A stretch of DNA of 64,000 nt from Alphaproteobacteria bacterium (GCA_030431875.1 JAUIIG010000001.1:37539-101538), one strand, 5' to 3'. Positions 9,821-64,000 are shown, counted from the stretch's first letter. The notes: a model not told the origin generated them from the letters alone. Numbers and translations: made by a program.

Positions 9821-10832
9821 GAACCAGCCCCAGCGCCTTGTAGGCGGCATCCAGCGTCGGCGTGCCCTGCTCGCGGGCCTGTGCAGCACCGCGCGCAAGG
9901 ATGGCGTCGAGCTGTTCGCGATCATCCTTCAGTTCCACGAACCGGTCGCGGATCGGGCTGAGGACCGACACCATCAGCTCTGCCAGGGCCGGCTTGAACT
10001 GGCCGAAGCCCGCGCCGCCATGGTCTGCGAGCACCTGCTCTGCCGTGGTTTCTGCCAGCGCGGCATAGATGCTGACGAGGTTCAGCGCCTCGGGCCGCTC
10101 TGCCAGCCCCGCGACTTCGCTGGGCAGCGGTTCGGGATCGGTCTTCGCCTTCTTCACCTTTTGCGCCATGGTGTCGGCATCGTCGGTCAGCGAGATGCGG
10201 CTCATGTCAGACGGGTCCGACTTGGACATCTTCTTGCTGCCGTCGCGCAGGCTCATGATGCGGGCGGCGGTTTCCGGGATGAAGGGATCGGGCAGGGTGA
10301 AGACCGGGTCCTCTTCCGAAGCGAAGTCGTTGTTGAACTTCTGCGCAATGTCGCGCGCCAGCTCGAGGTGTTGCTTCTGGTCATCGCCCACGGGCACGTG
10401 GGTGGCCTGGTACAGCAGCACGTCGGCGGCTTGCAGCACGGGATAGCTGAACAGCGCGGCGGACTGGCCTTCGCGGTTCTTGCCCGCCTTGTCCTTCCAT
10501 TGCGTCATGCGGTTGAGCCAGCCCATGCGCGCCGTGCCCATAAGCAGCCATTGCAGCTCTGCATGGGCGGGCACTTGCGCCTGGTTGAACAGCACGGTCT
10601 TGCTCGGGTCGAGCCCGCAGGCGACCAGCGTGGCAACCATTTCGAGGGTGGCGGCGTGCAGTTCCGCCGGGTTGTGTGGCATGCTGATGGCATGGAGGTC
10701 CGCCAGGAAGATGAGGCACTTGCCATTGTTGGCAACGGCTTCGTCCTGCAGTTTCACATAATTCTTGATCGCACCCAGGTAGTTGCCAAGGTGCGGCTTG
10801 CCGGTGGGCTGGATTCCGGAAACGACGATCAT
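9813..10832 (-). CDS. trpS: Tryptophan--tRNA ligase
   Basis: SGIQPTG.PHLGNY (HIGH), VPVGDDQKQH, KMSKS. Confidence 0.98.
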   Translation of the reverse strand: MIVVSGIQPTGKPHLGNYLGAIKNYVKLQDEAVANNGKCLIFLADLHAISMPHNPAELHAATLEMVATLVACGLDPSKTVLFNQAQVPAHAELQWLLMGTARMGWLNRMTQWKDKAGKNREGQSAALFSYPVLQAADVLLYQATHVPVGDDQKQHLELARDIAQKFNNDFASEEDPVFTLPDPFIPETAARIMSLRDGSKKMSKSDPSDMSRISLTDDADTMAQKVKKAKTDPEPLPSEVAGLAERPEALNLVSIYAALAETTAEQVLADHGGAGFGQFKPALAELMVSVLSPIRDRFVELKDDREQLDAILARGAAQAREQGTPTLDAAYKALGLVRG

Positions 10833-10893
10833 CGGATAGGTCTTTCAAATGCAATGGCTGGCAGGCCCGTGGCGCTGCCGGGAACAGGTCGGG

Positions 10894-10983
10894 TCAGGCG
10901 CGGCCCAGCCATCGCCAGGCCGCCCGCCCGCGCACTGCGAAACGCAGCGGAGCCGAACCGGTCGAGGGAGTCATTGCAGTCAT
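10894..10983 (-). CDS. Trp-containing leader peptide MTAMTPSTGSAPLRFAVRGRAAWRWLGRA (trpL-like)
   Basis: Translated by hand; TGG CGA TGG near the 3' end; stop lies 61 nt upstream of trpS; alternative ATG at 10974. Confidence 0.6.
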   Translation of the reverse strand: MTAMTPSTGSAPLRFAVRGRAAWRWLGRA

Positions 10984-10991
10984 CGCCGTGC

Positions 10992-11019
10992 CGCTTAGCA
11001 CAAGCGGGCGGATGGGCAA
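10992..11019 (-). promoter_or_regulatory. Sigma70-type promoter directly upstream of the leader ATG (possibly leaderless start)
   Basis: Minus strand TTGCCC-N16-TAAGCG (GCTAAG), with ATG 8 nt downstream. Confidence 0.45.
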
Positions 11020-11024
11020 GGTGC

Positions 11025-12617
11025 TCAGGCGCTCGGCACGCGCTTGCGGGTGAAGGCCTTGAGCCGGTCGCGGCTGACCGCGCCGATGGCGAAGGCGACG
11101 CCGAAATAGACCGCCATGGCGCCTGCCACGAGCACGCCGACAGCCAGCAACTGGACCATCAGGTTGAGGTCATAGACGTATTCCAGCAGGTCGCGCCCGT
11201 ACCACAGCGCAGCACCCATGGCGGCAGCAGCCAGCAGTTGCCGCACCAGTCGCCCGATCAGCGGCCAGTCCATCGCGTAGTGCCCGCGCACGCGCAGCAC
11301 CACGTAGAGGATCAGGCAGTTGAGCCATGCCCCGATCACGCTGGCAGCGGCGACACCTTCCACGCCGAAGCGATGGAGGAAGGCGAGGTTGAAACCGACG
11401 AACACGGCCAATGCCGCAAAGGCCGCATAGACCGGTGTGCGGGTATCCGAACGGGCATAGAAGCTGGGCACCAGCACCTTTACCAGCACGTAAGCGGGCA
11501 AGCCGCCGACCAGCACCGCCAGCACGCCGCCGGTCATCGCCGCGTCGGCAGCATCGAACCGGCCACCGCCGAAGATCACGGTGATGAAAGGCACGGCACA
11601 TACGGCCAGTGCCACGGCGGCAGGAAGGGTCAGCAACATGCCCAGCTCGATGGCGTTCGATTGCACGCGGGCGGCGCCGTCCTTGTCCTTCGCGCCGACG
11701 AACTTGGACAGCGTGGGCAGGATCGCGGTCGACAGGGCAATGCCGATGATCCCCAGCGGCAACTGGTTCAACCGGTCGGCATAGTTCATCCAGCTGACCG
11801 CGCTGCCCTCCAGCTGGTTGAGGAAGTAGACCTGCAGCAGGGTGTTGATCTGGTAGGCCCCGCCGCCGATGGCTGCGGGCAGGGCAATCTTGCCCAACCG
11901 CTTTACCTCGGGCGTCAGCTTCGGACGGCTGATCCAGCGCGGGCGGAATCCTTCCTTGCGCGCCCAGTAGACCAGCCATGCCAGTTGCAGCACGCCGGCC
12001 ACGGGAATGGCCCATGCCACGACATAGCCCATGGCGACGATATTGCTCTGCGCTCCATGCGACATGCTGACGCCCAGTAGGGTCACGATCAGCACAAGGT
12101 TCAGGATGACGGGGAAACTTGCGCCCGGCCCGAAACGAGAGACCGAATTGAGCATGCCGGTCAGCAGGGTCACCACGCTGACGAGCACGATGTAGGGGAA
12201 CATGATCTGCGCGAAATCGACCGAATAGTCGAACTTGGCCGGATCGATGGGTTTGTCCGACAGCAGCCAGATTACGCCCGGCATGGCGATCTCGAACACC
12301 GCGGTCAGCAGGATCAGCGCCGGGACGAAGACCGAGATCACGTCCTGCGAGAAGCTGCGCGCTTCCTCCAGCCCTTCGGCTTCGGTCTTGCCGTCCTGGT
12401 GCAGGCGGCGCGAGAACATCGGCACGAAAGCGGCCGAGAAGGCGCCCTCGGCGAACAGGCGGCGGAACACATTGGGAATGATGAAGGCCTGGAACCAGGC
12501 GTCCGTCACGTCATTCGCGCCAAGCACGCGCGAGAAGATCATCTCGCGCGCCATGCCGGCCACGCGGCTCACCATGGTGAGCGAGCCGATCGTGCCGACG
12601 TTCTTGAGCAGGCTCAT
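11025..12617 (-). CDS. murJ: Lipid II flippase MurJ (MviN)
   Basis: SRVAGMARE, PNVFRRLFAEGA, YADRLNQLPLG. Confidence 0.96.
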   Translation of the reverse strand: MSLLKNVGTIGSLTMVSRVAGMAREMIFSRVLGANDVTDAWFQAFIIPNVFRRLFAEGAFSAAFVPMFSRRLHQDGKTEAEGLEEARSFSQDVISVFVPALILLTAVFEIAMPGVIWLLSDKPIDPAKFDYSVDFAQIMFPYIVLVSVVTLLTGMLNSVSRFGPGASFPVILNLVLIVTLLGVSMSHGAQSNIVAMGYVVAWAIPVAGVLQLAWLVYWARKEGFRPRWISRPKLTPEVKRLGKIALPAAIGGGAYQINTLLQVYFLNQLEGSAVSWMNYADRLNQLPLGIIGIALSTAILPTLSKFVGAKDKDGAARVQSNAIELGMLLTLPAAVALAVCAVPFITVIFGGGRFDAADAAMTGGVLAVLVGGLPAYVLVKVLVPSFYARSDTRTPVYAAFAALAVFVGFNLAFLHRFGVEGVAAASVIGAWLNCLILYVVLRVRGHYAMDWPLIGRLVRQLLAAAAMGAALWYGRDLLEYVYDLNLMVQLLAVGVLVAGAMAVYFGVAFAIGAVSRDRLKAFTRKRVPSA

Positions 12618-47624: not shown

Positions 47625-48670
47625 GTCTCGTGCTCCTGCGGCTTGGGCACGAAGGCGAAGTAGAGCACCCAGAAGGCCAGCATGACCCCACCGATGGTGT
47701 AGCGCGAGCCCATGTCACCCACCAGCTGGCGGGCGTAACCTTCCAGCAGGCCGGCCACGATCAGCATGATGGTACAGCCGGCCATGACCTGGGCGGCGCG
47801 CACACCGGCGTGGCGCATGGCGGACAGGATCGACCGCTTGCCGGGAAAGGCCATGGTGCGGCCTACATGCATGCCCGCCGCGCCGGAAAGCAGGATGGCA
47901 CCGATCTCTGTCGTGCCGTGGACGCTCAGCCAGGCACCGAATTCCCAGCCGAGCCCGGCATCGGCAAAGACCCACAGCATCGCGCCGAGCAGGGCCATGT
48001 TGTAGACCAACAGCAGCAGGGTGGGGATGCCGAAGCAGAAGCCCAGCGCGAAGGCCATGATGCACACGCCGGTATTGTTTGAAAACAGGTAGGCGGCAAA
48101 GACGCCGAGGCCGTTGGCGTCTTCCGTGGTCGCCAGCGTTTCCCGCAAGACTTCGGGATCGGCGCCCGGAACGCGGCCGCCCGACATGCCTCCGGGCACC
48201 AGCGAGAAGAACCAGCTTTCGTCGCGTTCCACCAGCAGCCAGCCGACAACCGTGCCTGCCAGCATGACGGCGAAGGCGATGCAGATGTCGAGCCAGATGG
48301 CGCGGATCGATGCGCTCCAGCCGCCGCCGAGGAAGTAGCGCAGCCAGCCGCTGAGGCCGATGCGTGGGCCGTAGATCTGGAACCAGGCGCGGCGCACCAG
48401 TGCCTCGAGATAGCTCAAGGTTGCTGCATCGAGCGAAGTCTCGCGCGCCACGGCCAGTGAAGATGCAGTCTTGCGATAGAGCACCGGCAGTTCGAGCAGG
48501 TCGTCGTCGCTGATCCGCTTCGGGCGGTTCTTTTCCAGGGCGGTGACGATGGCCTCGAGCCGCTGCCAGTCGACCTCGCGTTCCAGCCGGAACTTGTCGG
48601 ACCGCAGCGAGGCCGCCTCGATATCGGCGGGCGGCTCGATCTCAGCCTTGGAGAACAGGGTAAGTGCCAT
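47621..48670 (-). CDS. SpoIIM/DUF95-family membrane protein
   Basis: FSNN, VHGTTEI, AGLLEG. Confidence 0.88.
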   Translation of the reverse strand: MALTLFSKAEIEPPADIEAASLRSDKFRLEREVDWQRLEAIVTALEKNRPKRISDDDLLELPVLYRKTASSLAVARETSLDAATLSYLEALVRRAWFQIYGPRIGLSGWLRYFLGGGWSASIRAIWLDICIAFAVMLAGTVVGWLLVERDESWFFSLVPGGMSGGRVPGADPEVLRETLATTEDANGLGVFAAYLFSNNTGVCIMAFALGFCFGIPTLLLLVYNMALLGAMLWVFADAGLGWEFGAWLSVHGTTEIGAILLSGAAGMHVGRTMAFPGKRSILSAMRHAGVRAAQVMAGCTIMLIVAGLLEGYARQLVGDMGSRYTIGGVMLAFWVLYFAFVPKPQEHET

Positions 48671-50034
48671 CAGCCGATTGCCTCCGCCCGCTTTGTTTCA
48701 AGGTAGAGGTCGATCAGGCGATAACCGATGGTCTCGTGCCGTGCTTCGATCACGTTGACGCCGAGGCGGCGCAGGCGCGTCAGTACCAGTTGCCGCTGGC
48801 GATGCAGCGCATCGGCCCCCACGGCGACGGCGATATCTCTCATGCTGTCGGGATCGGCCTCGGTCAGTTCCTCAAGTTCGGTGTCGACCAGGGTGACGAA
48901 GATCACCAGGTGATGCCGCACCAGCCGCTCGACGCTTTCGACCATGAGTTCGGCCGAGGTCGGGTCGGCAAAGTCGGAGAACAGCACGATCAGGCTGCGG
49001 CGCTTGAGCCGGGCGGTGAGCGTCGCGAGTGCCAAGGTGAAGTTGGGTTCACGCGGGATGTAGTCGAGCTCTGCCGCCGCGCTCTGCAAGCGGTGGAAGG
49101 CGCGGGTGTCGGTGACGAAGGGCGTCATCAATTGCGGGTGGTCGGCAAAACCGAACAGGCTCACCTTGTCACCGCCCTTCAGCGCGACATAGCTCGCCAT
49201 CAGCGCGGCGGAGACAGCGCGGTCGATGCGGGGCAGGCCATCGACGGGCTCGCACATCGACTGGCCGCAATCGAAGGCGAAGACGATCTGGTTGTCGCGT
49301 TCGGCCTCGTTCTCGCGGGCGTAAAGTGCGGTGTGGCGGGCCGAAGCCTTCCAGTCGATGCGGCGGCGATCCATGCCGGCTTCGTATTCGGACAGCGCCT
49401 CGAACTGGGTGCCTTCGCCGCGGATACGGCGGGCAACGAGGCCGAACTGGGCATCGCGCAGAAAGCTCTGCAGGACGGGAGAGCGGACCGGCGAGAGGTC
49501 CGGCCAGACACGGATGCCGGCGTCGAGCGTCGAATGTTTCTGCCGCACGGCCAGGCCCAGCGGACCGCGCCAGCGCAGCCACAGGTCGTACAATTCGCCG
49601 GGGCCACGACGGACCGGCACGGCCTCGCCGTTTCCGACAAACATCCCGGCTTCCCCGGTCGGCTGAAGCTTGAACAGCGCCGTGCCGCCCTCGCCAAGTC
49701 GCGGATCGAAACCGATGGCGGCTTCGGGCAGGGCGGCGTCGCTGTCGCGCTCGATTTCTGCTTCGACGCGGATCAGGGCCGTCTGGCCCACTTCCGCATC
49801 AGCCGGGACATAGTAGGCGAAATTGACCAGCTTGCCCGCCAGCCAACCATCCAGCACCGCAAGGAACAGCAATGCCAGGCCCGCCGCCGGGGCGACGATC
49901 CAGGCATTGGGTGCGGTTGCCGCCACCACCACGGCCACCGGCGCGAGCAGGGCCAGCAGCCCCAGCGCCAGCGGGGTCGGCACGATGGGGACCGGCGGCA
50001 GGTTCGCCAGGAAGGGGATGCGCGGCAGTTTCAC
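48670..50034 (-). CDS. DUF58 (vWA-like) protein
   Basis: GEGTQFEALSEY, IDWKASAR, DCGQSM, LFSD. Confidence 0.88.
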   Translation of the reverse strand: MKLPRIPFLANLPPVPIVPTPLALGLLALLAPVAVVVAATAPNAWIVAPAAGLALLFLAVLDGWLAGKLVNFAYYVPADAEVGQTALIRVEAEIERDSDAALPEAAIGFDPRLGEGGTALFKLQPTGEAGMFVGNGEAVPVRRGPGELYDLWLRWRGPLGLAVRQKHSTLDAGIRVWPDLSPVRSPVLQSFLRDAQFGLVARRIRGEGTQFEALSEYEAGMDRRRIDWKASARHTALYARENEAERDNQIVFAFDCGQSMCEPVDGLPRIDRAVSAALMASYVALKGGDKVSLFGFADHPQLMTPFVTDTRAFHRLQSAAAELDYIPREPNFTLALATLTARLKRRSLIVLFSDFADPTSAELMVESVERLVRHHLVIFVTLVDTELEELTEADPDSMRDIAVAVGADALHRQRQLVLTRLRRLGVNVIEARHETIGYRLIDLYLETKRAEAIG

Positions 50035-50038
50035 GGGG

Positions 50039-50997
<959 letters not shown>

Positions 50998-51001
<4 letters not shown>

Positions 51002-52251
51002 TTTGTCAGCGTCCTTTCAAATGTCCGTAAGCGCTGCGCTGCGCGAATGATGTCGCGCGGGCGGCTGGCCTCGCGCAGGTCCCCTGCGAGGCGAGAGAAG
51101 GGCGGGCCGTCATGGCCGCGTTTCTGAAGTGCATTGTCGATGGCGACTTCGCGCGAATCGTGATCGCCGATCCTGAGGCCCAGCGCGCTCGCCACGCGGC
51201 GGCCGACCATGTCCTCGTAAGGCTGCTTGAGCAGGTGCCAGCGCTTGACGCGTTCAAGCAGGGCGGCGCCGTTGCGCGCCAGTTGCCGCTTGCCCTGCGC
51301 CATGGCCGGAGCCTCTGCCACCGGCGGGCCGAAGCGGCGGAAGGCGCGCCAGGCGATCACCAGCGCGGCCAGGATCATGCACAGCGTGGCGGCGAGGAAG
51401 GGCGGCTCGAAGGCGAGGGTCAGCAGGTTGTCGCTGGCGCCGAGGCCGTTGAGCGTCAGGTCGAACTGCACCGGCATGCCGCTGTCTTCGGTGGCGATGG
51501 CGATCAGGTCGAGCGCTAGCCGCGCTCGCTCCTCGTCCGCCATGCCGTAATTGTTCAGCAGGTCCGGTTCGAACACGACAATGATCGGCCAAGGGTCGTA
51601 ATATTCGTAATCGCCGGGCGCTTCGACCTGCGCCACCAGCACGTCACCCTCGTCATCAACAACCATGGCGCGCAACTTGGTCTCGGGCTGGGTGGTCAGG
51701 GCCTGGACGACATCCTCGTCAGGCAAGTCACCGCTGCGGGCCAGACCTTGCCAGCCGCCGGTCTCGCCCACCGATAGTTCGGCGCCGTCGCCGATCTCGA
51801 GCCCGGCAAACCATTCGGGCGAATCCGGACCCATCAGCATCACCCAGCCGTCCTCGGCCTCCACTCCGGGCGCGTCAGGCACGGGGAAGGCGATCCATTT
51901 GGGCAGGACCAGCAAGGTCGGCCCGATGGCACTTTCGCGCCGGGTCTCGATGATCTCGTCGATCTCTTCGTGGTCGCTCCAGATCGGCGGCGTCAGGACA
52001 AGCAGGCCGTAGTCGTTGTTGCCGCTGGGATTGCGCGACAGGCTGACTTCGTGGCCGGTTTCCTCAAGCAGGGTGGCGAGGCCGGAATAGCCGTTCAGCC
52101 CGTTGGCGGCGGCGTGGCTGCCACCATTGCGCTCGTCGTCGCCGTTCCAGCCTTGCCCCAGTGCGTAGAGCAGCAGGAGGAAGGCCAGCGCGCCGACCAC
52201 CAGCAGGCCGAGCACCACCGCGGGGCGGAAAGGATTGGCCGCCCGGCTCAT
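50998..52251 (-). CDS. DUF4350-like membrane/periplasmic protein
   Basis: N-terminal TM helix, LLVLPKW, second TM helix then RFGP. Confidence 0.75.
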
Positions 52252-52925
52252 GATCCGATGGCCTTTTGCGCGAGGGCGAAATCGGCATAGGCCGCGCGGG
52301 CTGCCTGCCAGTCATCCTGGCTCAGCTTGCGCAAGGCGAACAGGCTGCGTTCCACCGGCGCGGCGATCAGGGCAAAGGCGTTGCGTGCGGCTTCGGGCAG
52401 GCGCGGCTCGCTGGCCAGTTCGCGCGCCGTGCTGCTCGGCTCGACCAGGTCGGGCCGCGCCTCGGCAATCTGGCCCACCGAACGCTTCAGCAGCAGGTGG
52501 GTGGCTTCGTCGTAGTCACCCGATGCAGCCAATCGGTCCGCTTCCTCCAGCAGGGCGAGCGCCGCGGTCTCTTCGGGCACCCATTCCTCTGCCTTGGCAC
52601 CGGATTTCCTGCCGCGTGCCTTGCGACCGAAGGTGCCGGGGGCATAGGCGTTGATCAGGAAGTAGGCGACGATCAGGATGGCGGCGCCGATCAGCACCCA
52701 TTGCAGCACCGGCCAGATGGCGACGAGGAAGCGTCCAATCGGGGCGAAAACGTCTGCCAGCCACTGGACCAGCTCGGACAGCCAGTCCGGCGGAGGTTCC
52801 GCCTGGGCTTCGGGTAGTTCGACGGGGCTGAACTGGATATCGCCGTCAGCACGCATCTCGCGCCATGCGCTTGCGACATCGTCGCCTTGCGCCGGCAGCG
52901 CTTCATTCCCCTGACCCGTTGTCAC
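52248..52925 (-). CDS. DUF4129-like membrane protein
   Basis: One TM helix; A..LA..G.Y.EA, TAREL, VERSLF; start uncertain (GTG at 52925). Confidence 0.72.
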   Translation of the reverse strand: MTTGQGNEALPAQGDDVASAWREMRADGDIQFSPVELPEAQAEPPPDWLSELVQWLADVFAPIGRFLVAIWPVLQWVLIGAAILIVAYFLINAYAPGTFGRKARGRKSGAKAEEWVPEETAALALLEEADRLAASGDYDEATHLLLKRSVGQIAEARPDLVEPSSTARELASEPRLPEAARNAFALIAAPVERSLFALRKLSQDDWQAARAAYADFALAQKAIGS

Positions 52926-53040
52926 GCTGCCATTGTTTGCACGGGCTTCGACGCGACGCAACGCCTGCCTTGGGATAGGGTGCACAAAAGTGCTCTCGCC
53001 CCGTTATGATACGGATATCGCGGCCAAATCGGGCAGGTCG

Positions 53041-57127: not shown

Positions 57128-57248
57128 GTTCGTATTCCAAATAATCTATCACCCGCCCGTGCTGTAAAGCGCGACGAGCGGAAACCTGGTTTCAGGCTAT
57201 ACCAACGGGCGGATTGGCACAAGTCGGACACGGCGGTAGGGCTGGTGC

Positions 57249-57830
57249 ATGGAATCTTCCCCCACGATTGCCCTGTTCGCCAAGTACCCGCAGGCGGGGC
57301 TGGCCAAGACCCGGCTGGCACCCCTGCTGGGCGAGGCCGGGGCGGCCGAAGTGCACCGCAAGCTGGTGGAGAAGACGCTTGTAACCATGCGCGAAAGCGG
57401 GCTGCCCTTTGCCGTCTATTTTGCGGGCGCACCGCGCGAACACTTTGCGGAATGGCTGGGCGACGGCGTGCCGCTGGTGGAGCAGGGCGAGGGTGACCTC
57501 GGTGCCCGGCTGGCGCGGGTGAAGGCCCCGGCGATCCTGCTGGGGGCGGACATTCCGGGGCTGCGGGTGGAGCACCTGACGGCTGCTGCCGAAGCGCTGG
57601 CGGAAAGCCCGGTGGTGATCGGTCCGGCCAGCGATGGTGGATACTACCTGCTTGGTTTTACGATGGAAATACCCTTTCTCTGGCAGGATATGCCTTGGGG
57701 GACTGAGAGGGTCCTAGCGAGGACTGAAGCCCGTCTGGCGGAGCGCAAGGTGCCTTATCGCCTGCTTGGCGAGTTGGACGACTGCGACCGGCCGGAAGAC
57801 CTCGCCGCATGGCCGGAGCTGCTGCCATGA
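57249..57830 (+). CDS. TIGR04282/DUF2064-type CofC-like transferase
   Basis: FAKYP..G.AKTRL, QGEGDLGARL, GPASDGGYYLLG, D.DRPED. Confidence 0.88.
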   Translation: MESSPTIALFAKYPQAGLAKTRLAPLLGEAGAAEVHRKLVEKTLVTMRESGLPFAVYFAGAPREHFAEWLGDGVPLVEQGEGDLGARLARVKAPAILLGADIPGLRVEHLTAAAEALAESPVVIGPASDGGYYLLGFTMEIPFLWQDMPWGTERVLARTEARLAERKVPYRLLGELDDCDRPEDLAAWPELLP

Positions 57831-58552
57831 GCCGCGTTTCCATCGTCGTCCCCATGCTCAACGAAGGGGCCGCACTGCCGGCGCTGGTCGAGCACTTGTC
57901 CAGGCTCGATCCTGTCCCTCTGGAGGTGCTGGCCGTCGATGGCCGGAGCGCCGACAATTCGATCATGCTGGCCGATGCGGCGGGCTGGCGGGTGCTGGTG
58001 ACCGATGCCGGGCGCGGCAGGCAGATCAACGCCGGTGTCGAAGCCGCGATGGGCGAATTTGTCGTCGTGCTCCATGCCGATACGATTCCGCCGACAGACA
58101 TGGTCGCGGTGATCGAAGCGACCCTGTCCGATCCGAAGATCGCGCTCGCCGGGTTCACCCCGATCATCCGTGGTTCGGAAAAGACGCGCTGGGGCACCAC
58201 GGCGCACAACTGGCTCAAGACCTGGTACGCGCCGCTGCTCACTCGCCCGCACCTGTTCCTGCGCGGGGTGCGGCTGCTGTTCGGTGACCACGCCATGTTC
58301 TTTCGTCGCGCGCAATTCCTCGAAAGCGGGGGCTGTGACCCCAATGCCAAGGTGATGGAGGAAGCGGACCTCTGCGTGCGCCTCGCGCGTTATGGCCGCG
58401 TCAAGCTCGTGCGCCGCACCGTTGTTACCAGCGACCGGCGCATCGCCGAGTGGGGAGCGCTTAAGGCCAACTGGATCTACTTCAAGGTCGGGATGCTATG
58501 GGCGCTGGGCATTCGCGAGCGGCTGGAACGGCATTACCCGGACGTGCGCTGA
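57827..58552 (+). CDS. TIGR04283-type family 2 glycosyltransferase
   Basis: SIVVPMLNE, DG.S.D, GRGRQINAG, LHADT, FGDH, YPDVR. Confidence 0.88.
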   Translation: MSRVSIVVPMLNEGAALPALVEHLSRLDPVPLEVLAVDGRSADNSIMLADAAGWRVLVTDAGRGRQINAGVEAAMGEFVVVLHADTIPPTDMVAVIEATLSDPKIALAGFTPIIRGSEKTRWGTTAHNWLKTWYAPLLTRPHLFLRGVRLLFGDHAMFFRRAQFLESGGCDPNAKVMEEADLCVRLARYGRVKLVRRTVVTSDRRIAEWGALKANWIYFKVGMLWALGIRERLERHYPDVR

Positions 58553-59625
58553 TTCCCCATCCGTTCGCCTCGAGCGAAGTCGAGAGTCGGTGGCGCGAGC
58601 GTGTCTCGACTACGCTCGACACGAACGGAAGGTTGAGGGAGGAAGCCGACAGAGATCGCGTAACCGATCAGCCGGTCCAGCCATGCGCTGTCCGTTCGCG
58701 GACAGGCGAGACCAGCTACTGACCGGAAGGCGCTGTCATCGAAGCGCGGGTTGCGGGTGAAGTAAGGCCCGAAAGTGCCCAGCAGGTGTCCCATCAGCAG
58801 GCGTTCGGCAGGGCGCAGGCTCGCCATGTCGACCGCGTCCGGCTCGACCACCACGGGATCGGGCAGGTGCGGTACGCGGGCTATGCCGTGGGCCAGTTCG
58901 GCGGCGGGCAGGGGAGCATCGGCGACAAGGTGGTAATAGCCGCCTTGCGCCCTGTCGAAGCGTTCTGCGAGCCGGACGATACCTTCGGCCACGTGGCAGA
59001 TCGGCACGAAATCGATGGTCGCCCCGCTCTTTGCCGGGAAAGTGCCGATCTTGCCGCGCGCCAGCAGCCGGAAAGCGTTGCACAGCGAGGGGAACTCGCG
59101 GATCGCGCCGGTCGCGCTGTCGCCCAGCACCACCGAAGGCCGGGCAATGACAAAGGGTACGCCGCTGTCCGCCACCACCCGTTCGGCAAGAGCCTTGCTC
59201 TCTTCATAGTTGTTGGTGAAGCGCGTACCTGCAGGGACCGGACCCTCGGCAATCTCGCCCTCGCGCGTGCCGCAGACATAGGCCGTGCTGACATGCAGCA
59301 AGCCTGCACCCGCCGTCTTGGCGAAGTGCGCCGCATTGCGCGTGCCGTCGACGTTGACCAGCGCCAGCTCCTCCTTAGAGGCGTCGAATTCGAGGCTCGC
59401 TGCGCAATGGATCAAAAGGTCGAAACCGCGCGGCTCCAGCCCCAACAGCGGCTGCGTCACATCGCCCGCCACGACCTCGATCCCATCCACCGGAACGCCG
59501 TCGTTGCCGCGCACCTCGCGCGTCCGGCGCACCATGGCGGTCACCTTGTGGCCCCGTGCCGCCAGCCGCGCGCAGACCTCGCCGCCGATCAGGCCGGCGG
59601 CTCCGGTAACGAGGACGCTCAGCAA
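58534..59625 (-). CDS. Extended SDR (NAD_binding_4, fatty acyl-CoA/thioester reductase-like); C-terminus reads through a REP doublet
   Basis: TGAAGLIG, HCAAS, HVSTAYVCG, YEESK, RPSVVLG; TTG start overlaps the methyltransferase stop. Confidence 0.85.
   Translation of the reverse strand: MLSVLVTGAAGLIGGEVCARLAARGHKVTAMVRRTREVRGNDGVPVDGIEVVAGDVTQPLLGLEPRGFDLLIHCAASLEFDASKEELALVNVDGTRNAAHFAKTAGAGLLHVSTAYVCGTREGEIAEGPVPAGTRFTNNYEESKALAERVVADSGVPFVIARPSVVLGDSATGAIREFPSLCNAFRLLARGKIGTFPAKSGATIDFVPICHVAEGIVRLAERFDRAQGGYYHLVADAPLPAAELAHGIARVPHLPDPVVVEPDAVDMASLRPAERLLMGHLLGTFGPYFTRNPRFDDSAFRSVAGLACPRTDSAWLDRLIGYAISVGFLPQPSVRVERSRDTLAPPTLDFARGERMGNQRTSG
58560..58629. repeat. Inverted REP doublet (REPIN-like)
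   Basis: TCCGTTCGCCTCGAGCGAAGTCGAGA (58560-58585) versus reverse complement of 58604-58629 TCCGTTCGTGTCGAGCGTAGTCGAGA; 23/26 identical. Confidence 0.8.
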
Positions 59626-60668
59626 CAGGGCGCTTCGGACTTGGTCGGATTGGCGTCGGACTGGCCGAAGGGAACAGCGGTACCGCAGCCGGGGAAGACG
59701 CCGTAGTGCCGCGAAAAATCGCCGATGAAGTCGAAATGCGGCGCAAAGCGCGTATCCGCCAGCATCATCCAGCTGTTGCCGCAGACCGGGAAGACCCGGC
59801 CCGCCTCGATCGCGTGGTGCGCATCGAGTTCGAACAGCTTCTCGTGCTCGGCCATGGTGCCCTTGTAGACCACGGCCTGGCCGTAATCCTCGCACTGCGG
59901 CTCCAGCCCGGCGAGCTTGAACAGCCGGTAAGTGGCCGAGACAAAGCTGATGCCTGCCAGCTTCTCCGCCGCTTCGGCATCGTTGATGCCCAGCGGACGG
60001 TCGGTCACGAGACGCGGATCGGCAAAACCTGCGGCCTTGGCGATGCGGTCAAAATCGCCCCAGTAGAGCGCACCCGACAGGCATTCGCCGTGCAGCACCG
60101 GATCGTTGAGCAAGTGCTGCGGCACGCGTCGGTCGGCATAGACGTCGGAGAAGTAGAGCTCGCCGCCCGGCTTCAGCAGCTTGTGCGCGGCGGCGAAGAC
60201 GGCGGGCTTGTCGGCGACAAGGTTGATGACACAGTTGGAGACGATGACGTCGAAGCTTTCTGGCTCCAGCCCCAGCTGGTCCAGCTGCTCGATATCGCCT
60301 TCGACGAACTCGACATTGGCATAGCCGAAGCGGTCGGCGTGCCAATCCTTGTGGGCATTGGCCACGGCCAGCTGCTCGGGCGTCGCATCGACCCCCGTGA
60401 CACTGCCGGTCGGCCCGACCAGCTGCGCCAGCAGGTAAGCGTCCTGCCCGCTGCCCGAGCCGAGGTCGAGCACGCGGCAGCCTTCCAGCGCCTGCGGGAC
60501 GACGAGGCCACAGCCGTAGTAGCGCGCCTTCACCCCTTCGTGGACATTGCGCAGGGCCTCGCGGATCGAGGGGGAGGGCATCTCGAAAGTGCAACAGGCA
60601 TCGGTGCGCAGGTCGCCGGAACCTTCCAGCACCTTGCCGTAGTAATTCTGCGAGTTTTCGAGATTCAT
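59619..60668 (-). CDS. ArsM/AS3MT-like SAM-dependent methyltransferase
   Basis: DACC, YYGCG, DLGSGSG, SNCVINL, GECLSGA; C-terminal CC. Confidence 0.88.
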   Translation of the reverse strand: MNLENSQNYYGKVLEGSGDLRTDACCTFEMPSPSIREALRNVHEGVKARYYGCGLVVPQALEGCRVLDLGSGSGQDAYLLAQLVGPTGSVTGVDATPEQLAVANAHKDWHADRFGYANVEFVEGDIEQLDQLGLEPESFDVIVSNCVINLVADKPAVFAAAHKLLKPGGELYFSDVYADRRVPQHLLNDPVLHGECLSGALYWGDFDRIAKAAGFADPRLVTDRPLGINDAEAAEKLAGISFVSATYRLFKLAGLEPQCEDYGQAVVYKGTMAEHEKLFELDAHHAIEAGRVFPVCGNSWMMLADTRFAPHFDFIGDFSRHYGVFPGCGTAVPFGQSDANPTKSEAPCC

Positions 60669-60770
60669 GAAACCGTTTCTCCAGTGGGTCCGAAAGGATG
60701 CATGGACGAGATGAACTTCGTCGGCCATCCTTAATCGGTTACGCCCGGTGCCGGGCCATGGGGAGCCCAA

Positions 60771-62186
60771 GTGAAATACACGCATGACGTGATCGTGATC
60801 GGTGGTGGTGCTGCGGGGCTTACCGCGGCGGGCGGCTGCGCGCTATTCGGGCTAAAGACTGCCCTCATCGAAGGTCACAAGATGGGCGGCGAATGCCTCA
60901 ACAACGGCTGCGTGCCGTCGAAGGCGCTGATCGCCAGTGCCAAGCGCGCCGCCGAAGCGCGCGAGGAAAAGCGCGCCGGGGTGCAGCTGGCTGCGCCCAA
61001 GGTCGAGTGGAGCGGCGTTCACAAGCATGTCCACGATGCCATCGCCCACATCGCACCGCATGATTCGGTCGAGCGGTTCGAGGAGATGGGCTGCGAGGTC
61101 ATCGTGGACTGGGCGCGCCTGACCGGCCCCAACGAGGTTGAGGTGGGCGGCCGCAAGCTGACCGCGCCGCGCATTGTCATCGCCACCGGATCGGGACCGG
61201 CCGTGCCGCCGATCGAGGGGCTGGACGGCGTTCCTTACCTGACCAACGAGAACCTGTTCGACCTGACCGAGCAGCCCGACCACCTCGTAATCATCGGCGG
61301 CGGAGTGATCGGCATGGAAATGGCGCAGAGCTTCTGCCGCCTCGGCAGCCAGGTCACCGTGATCAATCCCGGCGAACTGATGGGCCGCGATGACCGCGAC
61401 TCCGTGGCCGTGGTGAAACAGGTAATGGAAAGTGAAGGTGTCCGCTTTATCGACGGCAAGGCGGACAAGGTGTCAGGCACGGCGGGCAGGATCTCCGTCA
61501 CCACCGATGGTGGAGAGGAGATCGAAGGATCGCACCTGCTGGTCGCTGTCGGACGCAAGGCGCGTACCGAAGGCTACGGGCTGGAGGAGTTGGGCATCGA
61601 ACTGGGCCGCAATGGCATCACAGTCGATGCCCGGCGGCGCACCAGCGTGAAGCACATCTACGCCATCGGCGATTGCCGCGAGGGGCCGCGACTGACCCAT
61701 GTCTCGGGCTACGAAGGCTCCAACGTGGTGCTGGAGATCGCGCTGGGCCTGCCGGCCAAGGTCGACTGGAAAGCGCTGCCATGGTGCACCTATACCGAAC
61801 CCGAAGTGGCGCAGGTGGGCCTGACAGAAACCGAGGCACGGGCCAAATACGGCGACAAGCTGCGCGTCGTGACCGAAGGCTTCGACCATAACGAGCGCGC
61901 CATTGCCGAAGGGCTTGATCAGGGCCACCTGAAGATGATGTTCAAGGGCAACAAGGTTGTCGGCGCCTCGATTTGCGGGGTTAATGCGGGCGAGCTGCTG
62001 TTGCCGATCACCCAGATGATCACCGGCAAGAGCGGCAGTTTCGACGTGGGCGGGGCGGTGATTTCCTATCCCACCCGCGCGGAGATCGTGAAGGCGGCGG
62101 CCTTTTCCGCGTGGGAGCCGACGCTGTTCGGCAAATGGCCCAAGCGCTGGGTGGCCTTCCTCGCCAGGATCAGGCGGGCGTTCTGA
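60771..62186 (+). CDS. MerA/dihydrolipoamide dehydrogenase-like flavoprotein disulfide reductase
   Basis: GGGAAG, GGECLNNGCVPSK, GGGVIG; ends YPT and lacks the MerA C-terminal Cys pair. Confidence 0.9.
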   Translation: MKYTHDVIVIGGGAAGLTAAGGCALFGLKTALIEGHKMGGECLNNGCVPSKALIASAKRAAEAREEKRAGVQLAAPKVEWSGVHKHVHDAIAHIAPHDSVERFEEMGCEVIVDWARLTGPNEVEVGGRKLTAPRIVIATGSGPAVPPIEGLDGVPYLTNENLFDLTEQPDHLVIIGGGVIGMEMAQSFCRLGSQVTVINPGELMGRDDRDSVAVVKQVMESEGVRFIDGKADKVSGTAGRISVTTDGGEEIEGSHLLVAVGRKARTEGYGLEELGIELGRNGITVDARRRTSVKHIYAIGDCREGPRLTHVSGYEGSNVVLEIALGLPAKVDWKALPWCTYTEPEVAQVGLTETEARAKYGDKLRVVTEGFDHNERAIAEGLDQGHLKMMFKGNKVVGASICGVNAGELLLPITQMITGKSGSFDVGGAVISYPTRAEIVKAAAFSAWEPTLFGKWPKRWVAFLARIRRAF

Positions 62187-63184
62187 TGGCGAGCAGGACT
62201 GCCAGCCGCAACGCGCCCGATGGCCCGTCACCGTTCGCGGTGGCGGGGGATCGCCTGCCCAAGGCCAAGTTTTCTGACCCGCTGGTGACCGCCAAGGGCG
62301 AGGCGCGGGCGACGGTGGGCCTGCGCCAGCTCGACACGCTCTGGTTTGCCACCGGCACGCTGTGCAACCTTGCCTGCGCCAACTGCTATATCGAAAGCAG
62401 CCCTACCAACGATGCGTTGGTCTATCTGGCGGCTGCGGACGTGGCGCGCTTCCTTGATGAGATTGCGGAGCAGCCAAAGAGACTTCAGGCGCGCGAAATC
62501 GGCTTCACCGGCGGCGAGCCGTTCATGAACCCCGAGATCATCGCCATGATCGAGGATGCCCTGTCGCGCGGGCACGAGGTCTTGGTGCTCTCCAACGCGA
62601 TGAAGCCCATGCGCCGACACGAGGCGGAGCTGCTGCGGCTGCGCGGAGCCTACGGCGACAAGCTGACGATCCGCGTCTCCATCGATCATCACACCCAGGC
62701 CGTGCACGAGGCCGAGCGGGGTCCCAATTCGTGGGCGCCGATGCTGGACGGCCTGCGCTGGCTGTCAGCCAATGGCTTCTCCCTCGCGGCGGCGGGACGG
62801 CACCTGACCGGCGAAAGCGACGCCGAAGCGCGGGTGGCCTATGCCGCGCTGTTCGCCGCCGAAGGGATCGCCGTGGACTGCGCCAATCCCGCCCGGCTGG
62901 TGCTGTTCCCGGAAATGGACGCGAGCGCCGACATCGCCGAGATCACCACGGCCTGTTGGGACATCCTCGGCAAGTCGCCCGACGATATCATGTGCGCCAG
63001 CCAGCGCATGGTGGTCCACCGCAAGGGCGAGCCCGCACCGCGCGTGGTCGCCTGCACCCTGCTGCCCTACGATCCGCAGTTCGATCTGGGCGCGACGGTC
63101 GCCGAAGCTGACCGCGAGGTGTCGCTCAACCATCCCCATTGCGCGCGCTTCTGCGTGCTGGGTGGGGCCAGCTGTTCGGCCTGA
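62186..63184 (+). CDS. Radical SAM protein with a Cys-rich C-terminus (ArsS-related)
   Basis: CNLACANC, FTGGEP, VSID, C-terminal HCARFCVLGGASC. Confidence 0.85.
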   Translation: MASRTASRNAPDGPSPFAVAGDRLPKAKFSDPLVTAKGEARATVGLRQLDTLWFATGTLCNLACANCYIESSPTNDALVYLAAADVARFLDEIAEQPKRLQAREIGFTGGEPFMNPEIIAMIEDALSRGHEVLVLSNAMKPMRRHEAELLRLRGAYGDKLTIRVSIDHHTQAVHEAERGPNSWAPMLDGLRWLSANGFSLAAAGRHLTGESDAEARVAYAALFAAEGIAVDCANPARLVLFPEMDASADIAEITTACWDILGKSPDDIMCASQRMVVHRKGEPAPRVVACTLLPYDPQFDLGATVAEADREVSLNHPHCARFCVLGGASCSA

Positions 63185-63314: not shown

Positions 63315-64000
63315 ATGATAACAATCGCTGACGGCGATGCACCGCTGGCCCTGGATAGCGCCCAACTCCGTTCTTTTCTGGATATCATGCCGATCGCCAT
63401 GATCCTGGCGGATCATGACGGCATCATCCGTGCCGCCGGGCATACGGTGGAAGAGCACTTTGGCTATTCGCGCGATGAACTGGTTGGCCAGAACGTTTCG
63501 ATCCTGATGGGATCGCCGCACCAGGAGCGGCACGATGGCTACCTCAGACACTACCAGGAAACCGGCGAGAAGCGCATCATAGGCAAGCCGCGGATCGAGA
63601 ATGCGCGGCACAAGAACGGGCATGCCATCGCGGTCGAGGTGAACGTCGGCGAGACGGTGATCGAGGGGCGTCCCTATTACCTTGGCTTCCTGCGGCTGAT
63701 CGAGGCTGCCGAGACCAACCCGCAGCAGATCCAGACCATGCTGAGCGAGCTTGCCCATGTCTCGCGCGTTTCCGCGATGGGTGCCTTGTCGACTGCGATC
63801 GCGCACGAATTGAACCAGCCGCTGACGAGCATTTCCAACTTCGCCGAGGGCGCGCGTGACCGCCTGAAACAGCGTGCCGATGCGGAAGACCTGGGGGAAG
63901 TGATCGAAGCACTGGAAATCTGCAGCGAGCAGGCCGTTCGCGCAGGCCAGTTGCTGACCCGCTTGCGCGAGTTCCTGAAGCCTCCTGCGCACAAGACCGA
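63315..64000 (+). CDS. fixL: FixL-like heme-PAS histidine kinase (3' truncated by window; absent from ORF track)
   Basis: Hand translation from ATG 63315: GQNVSILM...RHDGYLRHY..TGEKRIIG (PAS), MGALSTAIAHELNQPL (H-box). Confidence 0.85.
   Translation, partial: MITIADGDAPLALDSAQLRSFLDIMPIAMILADHDGIIRAAGHTVEEHFGYSRDELVGQNVSILMGSPHQERHDGYLRHYQETGEKRIIGKPRIENARHKNGHAIAVEVNVGETVIEGRPYYLGFLRLIEAAETNPQQIQTMLSELAHVSRVSAMGALSTAIAHELNQPLTSISNFAEGARDRLKQRADAEDLGEVIEALEICSEQAVRAGQLLTRLREFLKPPAHKT

Follow-up and report, generated by a model that had tools for sequence, protein, structure and literature searches.

A candidate organoarsenical biosynthesis cluster with an unnamed ArsS-like radical SAM family in Alphaproteobacteria

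The DNA analysed here is a stretch of 64,000 nucleotides from an alphaproteobacterium of marine type (Alphaproteobacteria bacterium, GCA_030431875.1 JAUIIG010000001.1:37539-101538), called the window below, and its positions 57249-63184 hold six genes that look like an organoarsenical biosynthesis cluster. They encode an ArsM-type arsenite methyltransferase, a radical S-adenosylmethionine (SAM) protein, a disulfide reductase, a short-chain dehydrogenase/reductase (SDR), a TIGR04282-family transferase and a family-2 glycosyltransferase (GT2). We favour, with moderate confidence, the reading that the cluster represents the ArsS/TIGR04282/TIGR04283 ("arsenosugar-type") organoarsenical pathway in a form conserved in Alphaproteobacteria, with an unnamed radical SAM family in place of ArsS. 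A sequence-only reading of the window had already preferred biosynthesis over detoxification, and the gene context described below supports that preference. ArsS is the only family assigned to the adenosylation step, and the arsenosugar and arsenolipid steps beyond its product are not known. According to the passages of PMC13598754 and PMC12159101 that cite Cheng et al. 2021, ArsS adenosylates dimethylarsenite to give 5'-deoxy-5'-dimethylarsinoyl-adenosine (DDMAA).

The ArsM homologue and the radical SAM protein

By its sequence, the product of g4 (gene labels as in Table 1) is a genuine ArsM of the long AS3MT/Chlamydomonas type, with its activity in this organism predicted from the family. 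It matched the solved arsenite methyltransferases 5evj (Chlamydomonas ArsM; E 2e-104, residues 7-344), 8xt7 (E 7e-78) and 4fr0 (CmArsM; E 2e-71). All four catalytic, As(III)-binding cysteines aligned with those of CmArsM, namely C25/26 in DACC, C53 in YGCG, C146 in SNCV and C196 in GECL, in line with the canonical cysteine motifs noted in the sequence-only reading; in CmArsM numbering these positions are C44, C72, C174 and C224. The protein scored under the NCBIfam cutoffs, with 169.5 bits against 263 for NF008823 and 86.3 against 400 for NF038099, the arsenosugar ArsM model. Its homologues are named "arsenite methyltransferase" in UniRef and JGI, and only "methyltransferase domain-containing protein" in RefSeq.

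The radical SAM protein g6 has the core motif C60-x3-C64-x2-C67 (CX3CX2C), which is nearly invariant in the family alignment, together with SSPTND and FTGGEPF, and matched PF04055 with 52 bits. It reached no curated cutoff: Rv1681 gave 82.8 bits against 380, and the ArsS model TIGR04167 gave 53.5 against 300, with only model positions 5-153 aligned. No Pfam match to DUF3641, the Cys-rich C-terminal domain of ArsS, was found in g6 at E≤1e-3. Identification as ArsS by the curated model was rejected on the TIGR04167 score, in agreement with the earlier view that this enzyme diverges from classic ArsS. The Cys-rich tail that had been noted is present as five further C-terminal cysteines, in the arrangement LMC...ACT...HPHCARFCVLGGASCS.

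For comparison, two RefSeq-annotated ArsS proteins were recovered, both plasmid-borne, from Burkholderia glumae (bglu_2p) and Thiodictyon (pTs417). Two motifs, VMC and C-x2-3-C...G-x-SCS, line up with both of them. When the family was aligned with Thiodictyon ArsS by hhalign, the match was essentially full length and included the C-terminal Cys motif (probability 98.5%, E 1.6e-15, 267 columns). For B. glumae ArsS, a BLASTP segment and the MAFFT alignment placed HPHCARFCVLGGASCSA opposite ADHCFGCTAGQGSSCSG. Membership of g6 in the Rv1681 family was rejected as well, on the score given above and because a true Rv1681-family protein is devoid of the C-terminal Cys motif. Judged from these alignments, g6 belongs to a separate family whose core is nearer Rv1681 and whose C-terminus is ArsS-like. 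The functional argument comes mainly from gene context.

This family, which occupies the ArsS position, is the most useful new element of the cluster. It is widespread: a scan of 1.84 billion representatives at E≤1e-30 gave 225 clusters at 50% identity. CX3CX2C, SSPTND, FTGGEPF and the five C-terminal cysteines are conserved in it, and the C-terminal sequence HPHCA(R/K)FCVLGG(A/G)(S/A)CS (HxCxxFCVLGGxxCS) is essentially invariant in 82 family loci. Selenocysteine variants were sought as in-frame TGA at the C-terminal Cys positions, and cysteine was encoded in all 82. Ten diverse relatives of g6 passed no NCBIfam model (about 85 bits against 380 for Rv1681 and 47-72 against 300 for ArsS), and family members are annotated only as "radical SAM protein"; a literature search found nothing on this family or on the accessory genes. 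Natural fusions join family radical SAM domains to TIGR04282 (P0241), metallophosphoesterase (P0242, P0243 and P0280) and HD/YfbR-like (P0244) domains. The AF2 model of g6 (pLDDT 87) had only generic twitch/SPASM-type relatives (BlsE, SuiB and SkfB, TM about 0.53), and hence gives no information on the substrate. An unannotated stretch of the Marinobacter adhaerens plasmid pHP-187 (L083, 9001-9874) also contains a 35%-identical relative, in two tblastn pieces ending in HRCFSCYRFGASCSA, which could be either a pseudogene or a gene that the annotation overlooked.

Gene neighbourhoods and cluster layout

A scan at one genome per species yielded 80 loci with relatives at 59-81% identity. They lie in Sphingomonadales, Caulobacterales, Rhodobacterales, Acetobacteraceae, Reyranellaceae and a few other phyla. 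Homologues of the partner genes were counted within 10 kb in the 82 family loci: the DUF2064 (TIGR04282) gene was a neighbour in 36, GT2 in 35, the FAD reductase in 31, the SDR and an FA_hydroxylase (sterol-desaturase family) gene in 21 each, ArsM in 18, TVP38 in 10, methylthioadenosine (MTA) phosphorylase in 8 and DUF547 in 4. The radical SAM gene follows the FAD reductase tightly in most loci. The complete six-gene set, in unchanged order, is shared by Erythrobacteraceae, Sphingomonadaceae, a metagenome-assembled genome of Beijerinckiaceae, and Acetobacteraceae. The recurrence of one gene order in many genomes argues that the cluster is not a chance juxtaposition.

ArsM was found beside a family radical SAM gene in at least five independent arrangements, one of which is the six-gene form. 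The two genes are directly divergent in four loci (L036, L046, L054 and L061), and a minimal operon of ArsM, radical SAM and GT2 is present in L051. The radical SAM gene of Parvularcula (L087) diverges from an ArsM-SDR-DUF2064-GT2 operon, and in a further arrangement with ArsM (L089) the set is joined by a nucleoside phosphorylase gene and a DUF2064-GT2 fusion (10138-11451). In Sphingomonas kaistensis (L088, CP145607.1, 5469-9047), an ArsM of the g4 subfamily stands alone beside ppx and rlmE, and the other five genes are all absent within 8 kb; the module seems to have been lost here and only ArsM kept. On a plasmid of Roseomonas haemaphysalidis (L082, NZ_CP061178.1, 6043-18918), a large variant locus has no ArsM; it encodes a TIGR04282 protein, two DUF547 proteins, a 459-aa TrsS-like radical SAM protein, a radical SAM protein of the window type, a PhnD/PhnE/ATPase ABC transporter, a metallophosphoesterase, a chalcone-isomerase-like protein, MauE/DoxX, an FAD reductase, VTT/TVP38, another FAD oxidoreductase and a GT2.

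The two annotated ArsS genes have similar company. The Thiodictyon locus consists of GT2, sterol desaturase, arsS and TIGR04282, and the B. glumae locus of arsS, MTA phosphorylase, TIGR04283, TIGR04282, an FAD oxidoreductase and a TVP38-FAD oxidoreductase fusion. Neither contains the SDR; therefore this enzyme marks the type of cluster found in the window.

The SDR (g3) belongs by sequence and fold with thioester and fatty acyl reductases, as the sequence-only reading had suggested. Its best Pfam model was NAD_binding_4 (PF07993, 113 bits against a gathering score of 20.1), followed by Epimerase with 73 bits, and it carries the motifs TGxxGxxG, VSTAYV and YxxxK. It did not reach the thioester-reductase subfamily model TIGR01746 (100.4 bits against 213), and gave 125 bits with PRK07201. 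The terminal reductase (R) domain of MxaA was the best sequence match in the PDB and also the top Foldseek hit (TM 0.77) for the AF2 model (pLDDT 88). It was followed by a polyketide synthase thioreductase, the rice fatty acyl reductase DPW and the R domains of carboxylic acid reductases (CAR), whereas sugar epimerases reached a TM of only 0.56-0.66. The predicted fold thus supports reduction of thioesters or aldehydes as its role. That it is a plain sugar epimerase was judged less likely, because fold and Pfam ranking both favour the R-domain and fatty acyl reductase types.

In all 16 loci with both genes, the SDR is the next gene downstream of ArsM, at a distance of -7 to +22 nt, which bears out the coupling of the two that had been proposed. 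Rare linkage of the SDR, which the sequence-only reading had named as counting against its proposal, was not observed: the SDR is present in 19 of the 24 loci with close TIGR04282 homologues. The SDR had been described as an extra enzyme, and this description did not hold, as it is a regular member of the cluster; ArsM is the more variable part, and seven loci have the other five genes without it.

For the two transferases, the families named in the sequence-only reading held for g1 and were a near miss for g2. The g1 protein passed TIGR04282 with a full-length match (170.6 bits against a cutoff of 134) and matched DUF2064 (PF09837, 89 bits) and, weakly, CofC (E 5e-8). TIGR04283 is the best model of g2 over its full length, and the score just missed the cutoff (166 bits against 182); Pfam placed the protein in GT2 (PF00535, 60 bits), with weaker matches to MftF and glucosyl-3-phosphoglycerate synthase. 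As to g5, a MerA-like disulfide reductase had been proposed. The reductase part stands, as Pyr_redox_2 and Pyr_redox_dim are both present with the redox pair C42-x4-C47 (CLNNGC). MerA itself was rejected, on 312.7 bits against 454 for TIGR02053, the lack of a match to the N-terminal HMA (NmerA) domain and a C-terminus (...FLARIRRAF) without a cysteine pair or any other cysteine. PRK06370.1-3 gave 385 bits (cutoff 620), and the substrates of g5 relatives from that model group are small inorganic compounds or oxidants.

The six open reading frames (ORFs) were confirmed and form three tightly coupled pairs, g1-g2, g4-g3 and g5-g6 (Table 1). The ATG of g2 overlaps the stop codon of g1 (ATGA), and that of g6 overlaps the stop codon of g5 (TGATG). 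The g3 frame opens with TTG within the final codons of g4, a 7-nt overlap at the ArsM stop; g2 and g3 are convergent.

Table 1. Features of the candidate organoarsenical cluster, in window coordinates
Feature	Position	Strand	Description
g1	57249..57830	+	TIGR04282-family, CofC/MobA-like (DUF2064) transferase, 193 aa
g2	57827..58552	+	Family-2 glycosyltransferase, TIGR04283-like, 241 aa
g3	58534..59625	-	Stand-alone extended SDR, thioester-reductase / fatty-acyl-reductase type, 363 aa
g4	59619..60668	-	AS3MT-type arsenite S-adenosylmethionine methyltransferase (ArsM), 349 aa
Divergent intergenic region	60669..60770		102 bp between the ArsM-SDR and reductase-radical SAM pairs; presumed promoter region, from its position only
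g5	60771..62186	+	FAD/NAD(P)H disulfide reductase, MerA / lipoamide dehydrogenase class, 471 aa
g6	62186..63184	+	Radical SAM enzyme, unnamed ArsS-like family, 332 aa

A promoter and terminator scan and an Rfam search of the cluster and its surroundings gave no hit at all; the divergent intergenic region, too, lacked a sigma-70-like site and an Rfam element. A Ppx/GppA gene lies upstream of the cluster and a PAS-domain histidine kinase gene downstream, the latter read by eye from its translation at 63316-64000 on the plus strand, where it runs off the end of the window. In the closest relatives (L002, L004, L012 and L015) an FA_hydroxylase gene lies between ppx and g1. The corresponding spacer of the window is only 120 bp (57128-57248) and holds no such gene, and a tblastn search of all 64 kb was negative for FA_hydroxylase, MTA phosphorylase, TVP38 and DUF547. 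A crude motif scan of the whole window likewise found no ArsR or ArsC signature, as the sequence-only reading had stated for arsR and arsC. The G+C content of the window is about 65%. The closest protein relatives of the cluster are from Aurantiacibacter, and near-identical DNA was found only in metagenomic DNA runs. Elsewhere in the window, four co-directional ORFs at 48670-52985 on the minus strand have, by eye from their translations, the look of a Bat/aerotolerance-type operon (a MoxR-type AAA ATPase at 50039-51001, a DUF58-like protein at 48670-50034 and two membrane-anchored proteins), unrelated to the six-gene cluster.

Proposed pathway and alternatives

In the route that we propose, ArsM, whose family membership is established, would methylate As(III) to dimethylarsenite (DMAs(III)). 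The g6 enzyme would then put the 5'-deoxyadenosyl group of SAM on the trivalent arsenic to give a 5'-deoxy-5'-dimethylarsinoyl-adenosine-like nucleoside, a step suggested by the gene neighbourhood and the shared C-terminal Cys motif. The reductase g5, translationally coupled to g6, may keep the arsenical or the cysteine pairs of the enzymes reduced. Adenine would be removed by an enzyme of the MTA phosphorylase type, which is encoded in related loci and not in the window. The CofC-like g1 and the inverting GT2 g2, whose families are fused in one locus (L089), would activate the arseno-ribosyl unit and pass it to an acceptor. GT2 enzymes invert configuration, which would fit the beta-ribosides of the known arsenosugars if the donor were alpha-linked. 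In the last and least certain step, the SDR paired with ArsM would carry out an NAD(P)H-dependent reduction, which could make an alcohol acceptor, reduce a ring-opened ribose or sugar, or reduce an acyl aldehyde or thioester.

Several observations weigh against this arsenic-centred pathway. None of the partner genes lies within 10 kb in about 40 of the 82 family loci, and the other five genes are kept in the seven loci that lack ArsM. No ArsM is found near the annotated ArsS genes of B. glumae and Thiodictyon, so the accessory genes are linked to arsenic by association only. The "arsenosugar biosynthesis glycosyltransferase" names at NCBI are predictions for which no experimental paper was found, and the activities of the cluster proteins are likewise predicted from sequence and context. 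The hhalign match of the family to B. glumae ArsS covered the core only (E 8e-13). In a control comparison, the g6 core was matched better by a true member of the Rv1681 family (E 5e-30; 535.7 bits for that member on its own model) than by ArsS.

The first two of these points would also fit an alternative that we regard as unlikely, in which the native substrate of the radical SAM, reductase, TIGR04282, GT2 and SDR module is not arsenic and ArsM is an occasional add-on. The substrate could then be a different metalloid, a compound of selenium or sulfur, or something phosphonate-like. On the Roseomonas plasmid, a PhnD/PhnE-type ABC transporter and a TrsS-like radical SAM gene accompany the radical SAM gene of this family, which points the same way, as does the position of the closest curated family, Rv1681, beside thiol-redox genes and a substrate-binding protein (SBP) that resembles selenate and phosphonate binders. 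However, ArsM adjoins the radical SAM gene in at least five independent arrangements, including the minimal operon with GT2, and g4 retains all four As(III)-binding cysteines. Moreover, the same accessory genes accompany ArsS, the arsenic chemistry of which was shown in vitro according to the passage on it in PMC13598754.

A second alternative concerns the product, which would be an arsenolipid, as the sequence-only reading had suggested. The SDR could be a fatty acyl-CoA or acyl carrier protein reductase that gives a fatty alcohol or aldehyde, and the GT2 could join this lipid to the arseno-ribosyl unit, to give an alkyl arsenoriboside comparable to arsenosugar-phytol, or the lipid could be processed further. 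This proposal is speculative and, to our mind, quite improbable for the cluster. It draws on the fold and motifs of the SDR, which are of the R-domain and fatty acyl reductase type and not of the sugar-epimerase type, on DedA/TVP38 membrane proteins in related loci, and on the membrane FA_hydroxylase/sterol-desaturase gene that flanks the cluster in 21 of the 82 loci, those of the closest relatives among them, and also occurs in an annotated ArsS cluster. In algae, arsenoriboside lipids that carry an alcohol as aglycone do exist (PMC11009773). Against it, family-model searches of the six genes revealed no acyl-activating (adenylating) enzyme, acyl-CoA ligase, carrier protein or lipid transferase, the window has no FA_hydroxylase gene, and R-domain-like SDRs also reduce non-lipid thioesters and aldehydes. 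Detoxification by methylation only, with ArsM acting alone among functionally unrelated neighbours as the solitary gene of S. kaistensis might suggest, is hardly credible in view of the start/stop overlaps, the tight gene pairs conserved across families and orders, the fusions that link partner proteins and the recurrence of the same gene set in rearranged orders.

If the g6 family carries out the ArsS reaction, more organisms would be expected to make complex organoarsenicals. Its three coupled pairs and the natural fusions make the compact cluster a source of candidate enzymes for removing adenine, for activating and transferring the sugar, for redox support and for a reduction. A wider reading is possible, although we hold it as rather doubtful: heterotrophic Alphaproteobacteria (among them Erythrobacteraceae, Sphingomonadaceae, Caulobacterales, Acetobacteraceae and roseobacters) would carry a second ArsS-type family and a full route from arsenite to adenosine-derived organoarsenicals, and in the Sphingomonadales-type cluster the SDR would turn the route towards a compound that is not among the known arsenosugars, for example a reduced arseno-pentitol or an arsenolipid of the alkyl arsenoriboside kind. 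If this were true, ordinary marine and soil heterotrophs, beyond algae and cyanobacteria, would be sources of complex organoarsenicals, and the cluster would supply candidate enzymes for the steps after DDMAA.

Comparison with known systems

The closest curated family to g6 by core sequence is the Rv1681 radical SAM protein, which occurs with the Rv1680 SBP-like protein (NF049973/NF049985); it differs in having no C-terminal Cys motif and other gene partners. On a plasmid of Mycolicibacterium vanbaalenii (L086, NZ_CP126902.1, 1-12675), a true Rv1681-family gene lies among redox and metalloid-type genes, which encode an Rv1680-family SBP-like protein resembling selenate and phosphonate binders, CcdA, a thiol:disulfide oxidoreductase, a TrsS-like radical SAM protein with a DVU_1556-like methyltransferase, a glutaredoxin and a deiodinase-like protein. 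Such neighbours suggest a part for the sister family, too, in handling a metalloid or a redox-active small molecule.

The SDR shares its fold (TM 0.68-0.77), NAD_binding_4, TGxxGxxG, STAYV and YxxxK with the R domains of MxaA (4u7w/4w4t) and CAR and with rice DPW (7eoz). Unlike these R domains and fatty acyl reductases, it stands alone with 363 aa, without a carrier domain or the C-terminal domain of fatty acyl reductases, and reaches only 100 of the 213 bits for TIGR01746.

In arsinothricin biosynthesis by Burkholderia gladioli, ArsL and ArsM, a radical SAM protein and an ArsM-type methyltransferase, form a C-As bond (PMC8552651; bioRxiv 10.1101/2024.02.01.577332). ArsL, however, is non-canonical and transfers a 3-amino-3-carboxypropyl group, and the system has no TIGR04282/TIGR04283 partners. 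On the arsinothricin ArsM model, g4 scored 136 bits against 500. The HpnH/HpnG pair of hopanoid biosynthesis offers a mechanistic analogy only, as its substrate differs: the radical SAM enzyme adds 5'-deoxyadenosyl, a phosphorylase or nucleosidase removes the adenine, and the ribosyl group is then reduced or glycosylated. HpnA and HpnH were among the weak matches, far under cutoff (72 bits against 368 for HpnA).

The ArsS loci of B. glumae and Thiodictyon have a canonical ArsS and no R-domain-like SDR, and their accessory proteins are only 30-38% identical to those of the window. They nevertheless have an accessory set in common with the loci of the g6 family, namely TIGR04282, TIGR04283/GT2, FA_hydroxylase, MTA phosphorylase and an FAD oxidoreductase with TVP38.

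Another close parallel is the cyanobacterial route (Synechocystis), in which ArsM and ArsS lead to 5'-deoxy-5'-dimethylarsinoyl-adenosine (Xue et al. 2019 and Cheng et al. 2021, as cited in the relevant passages of PMC12159101 and PMC13598754). The window differs from it in that g6 fails the ArsS model and is without a DUF3641 match, g4 is of the long AS3MT/Chlamydomonas type and not of the NF038099 type, and the host is a heterotrophic alphaproteobacterium. The two systems are alike in a methyltransferase that adjoins a radical SAM protein, in the CX3CX2C motif, in a Cys-rich C-terminus with CxxC...G-x-SCS, and in partners of the TIGR04282 and TIGR04283 types.

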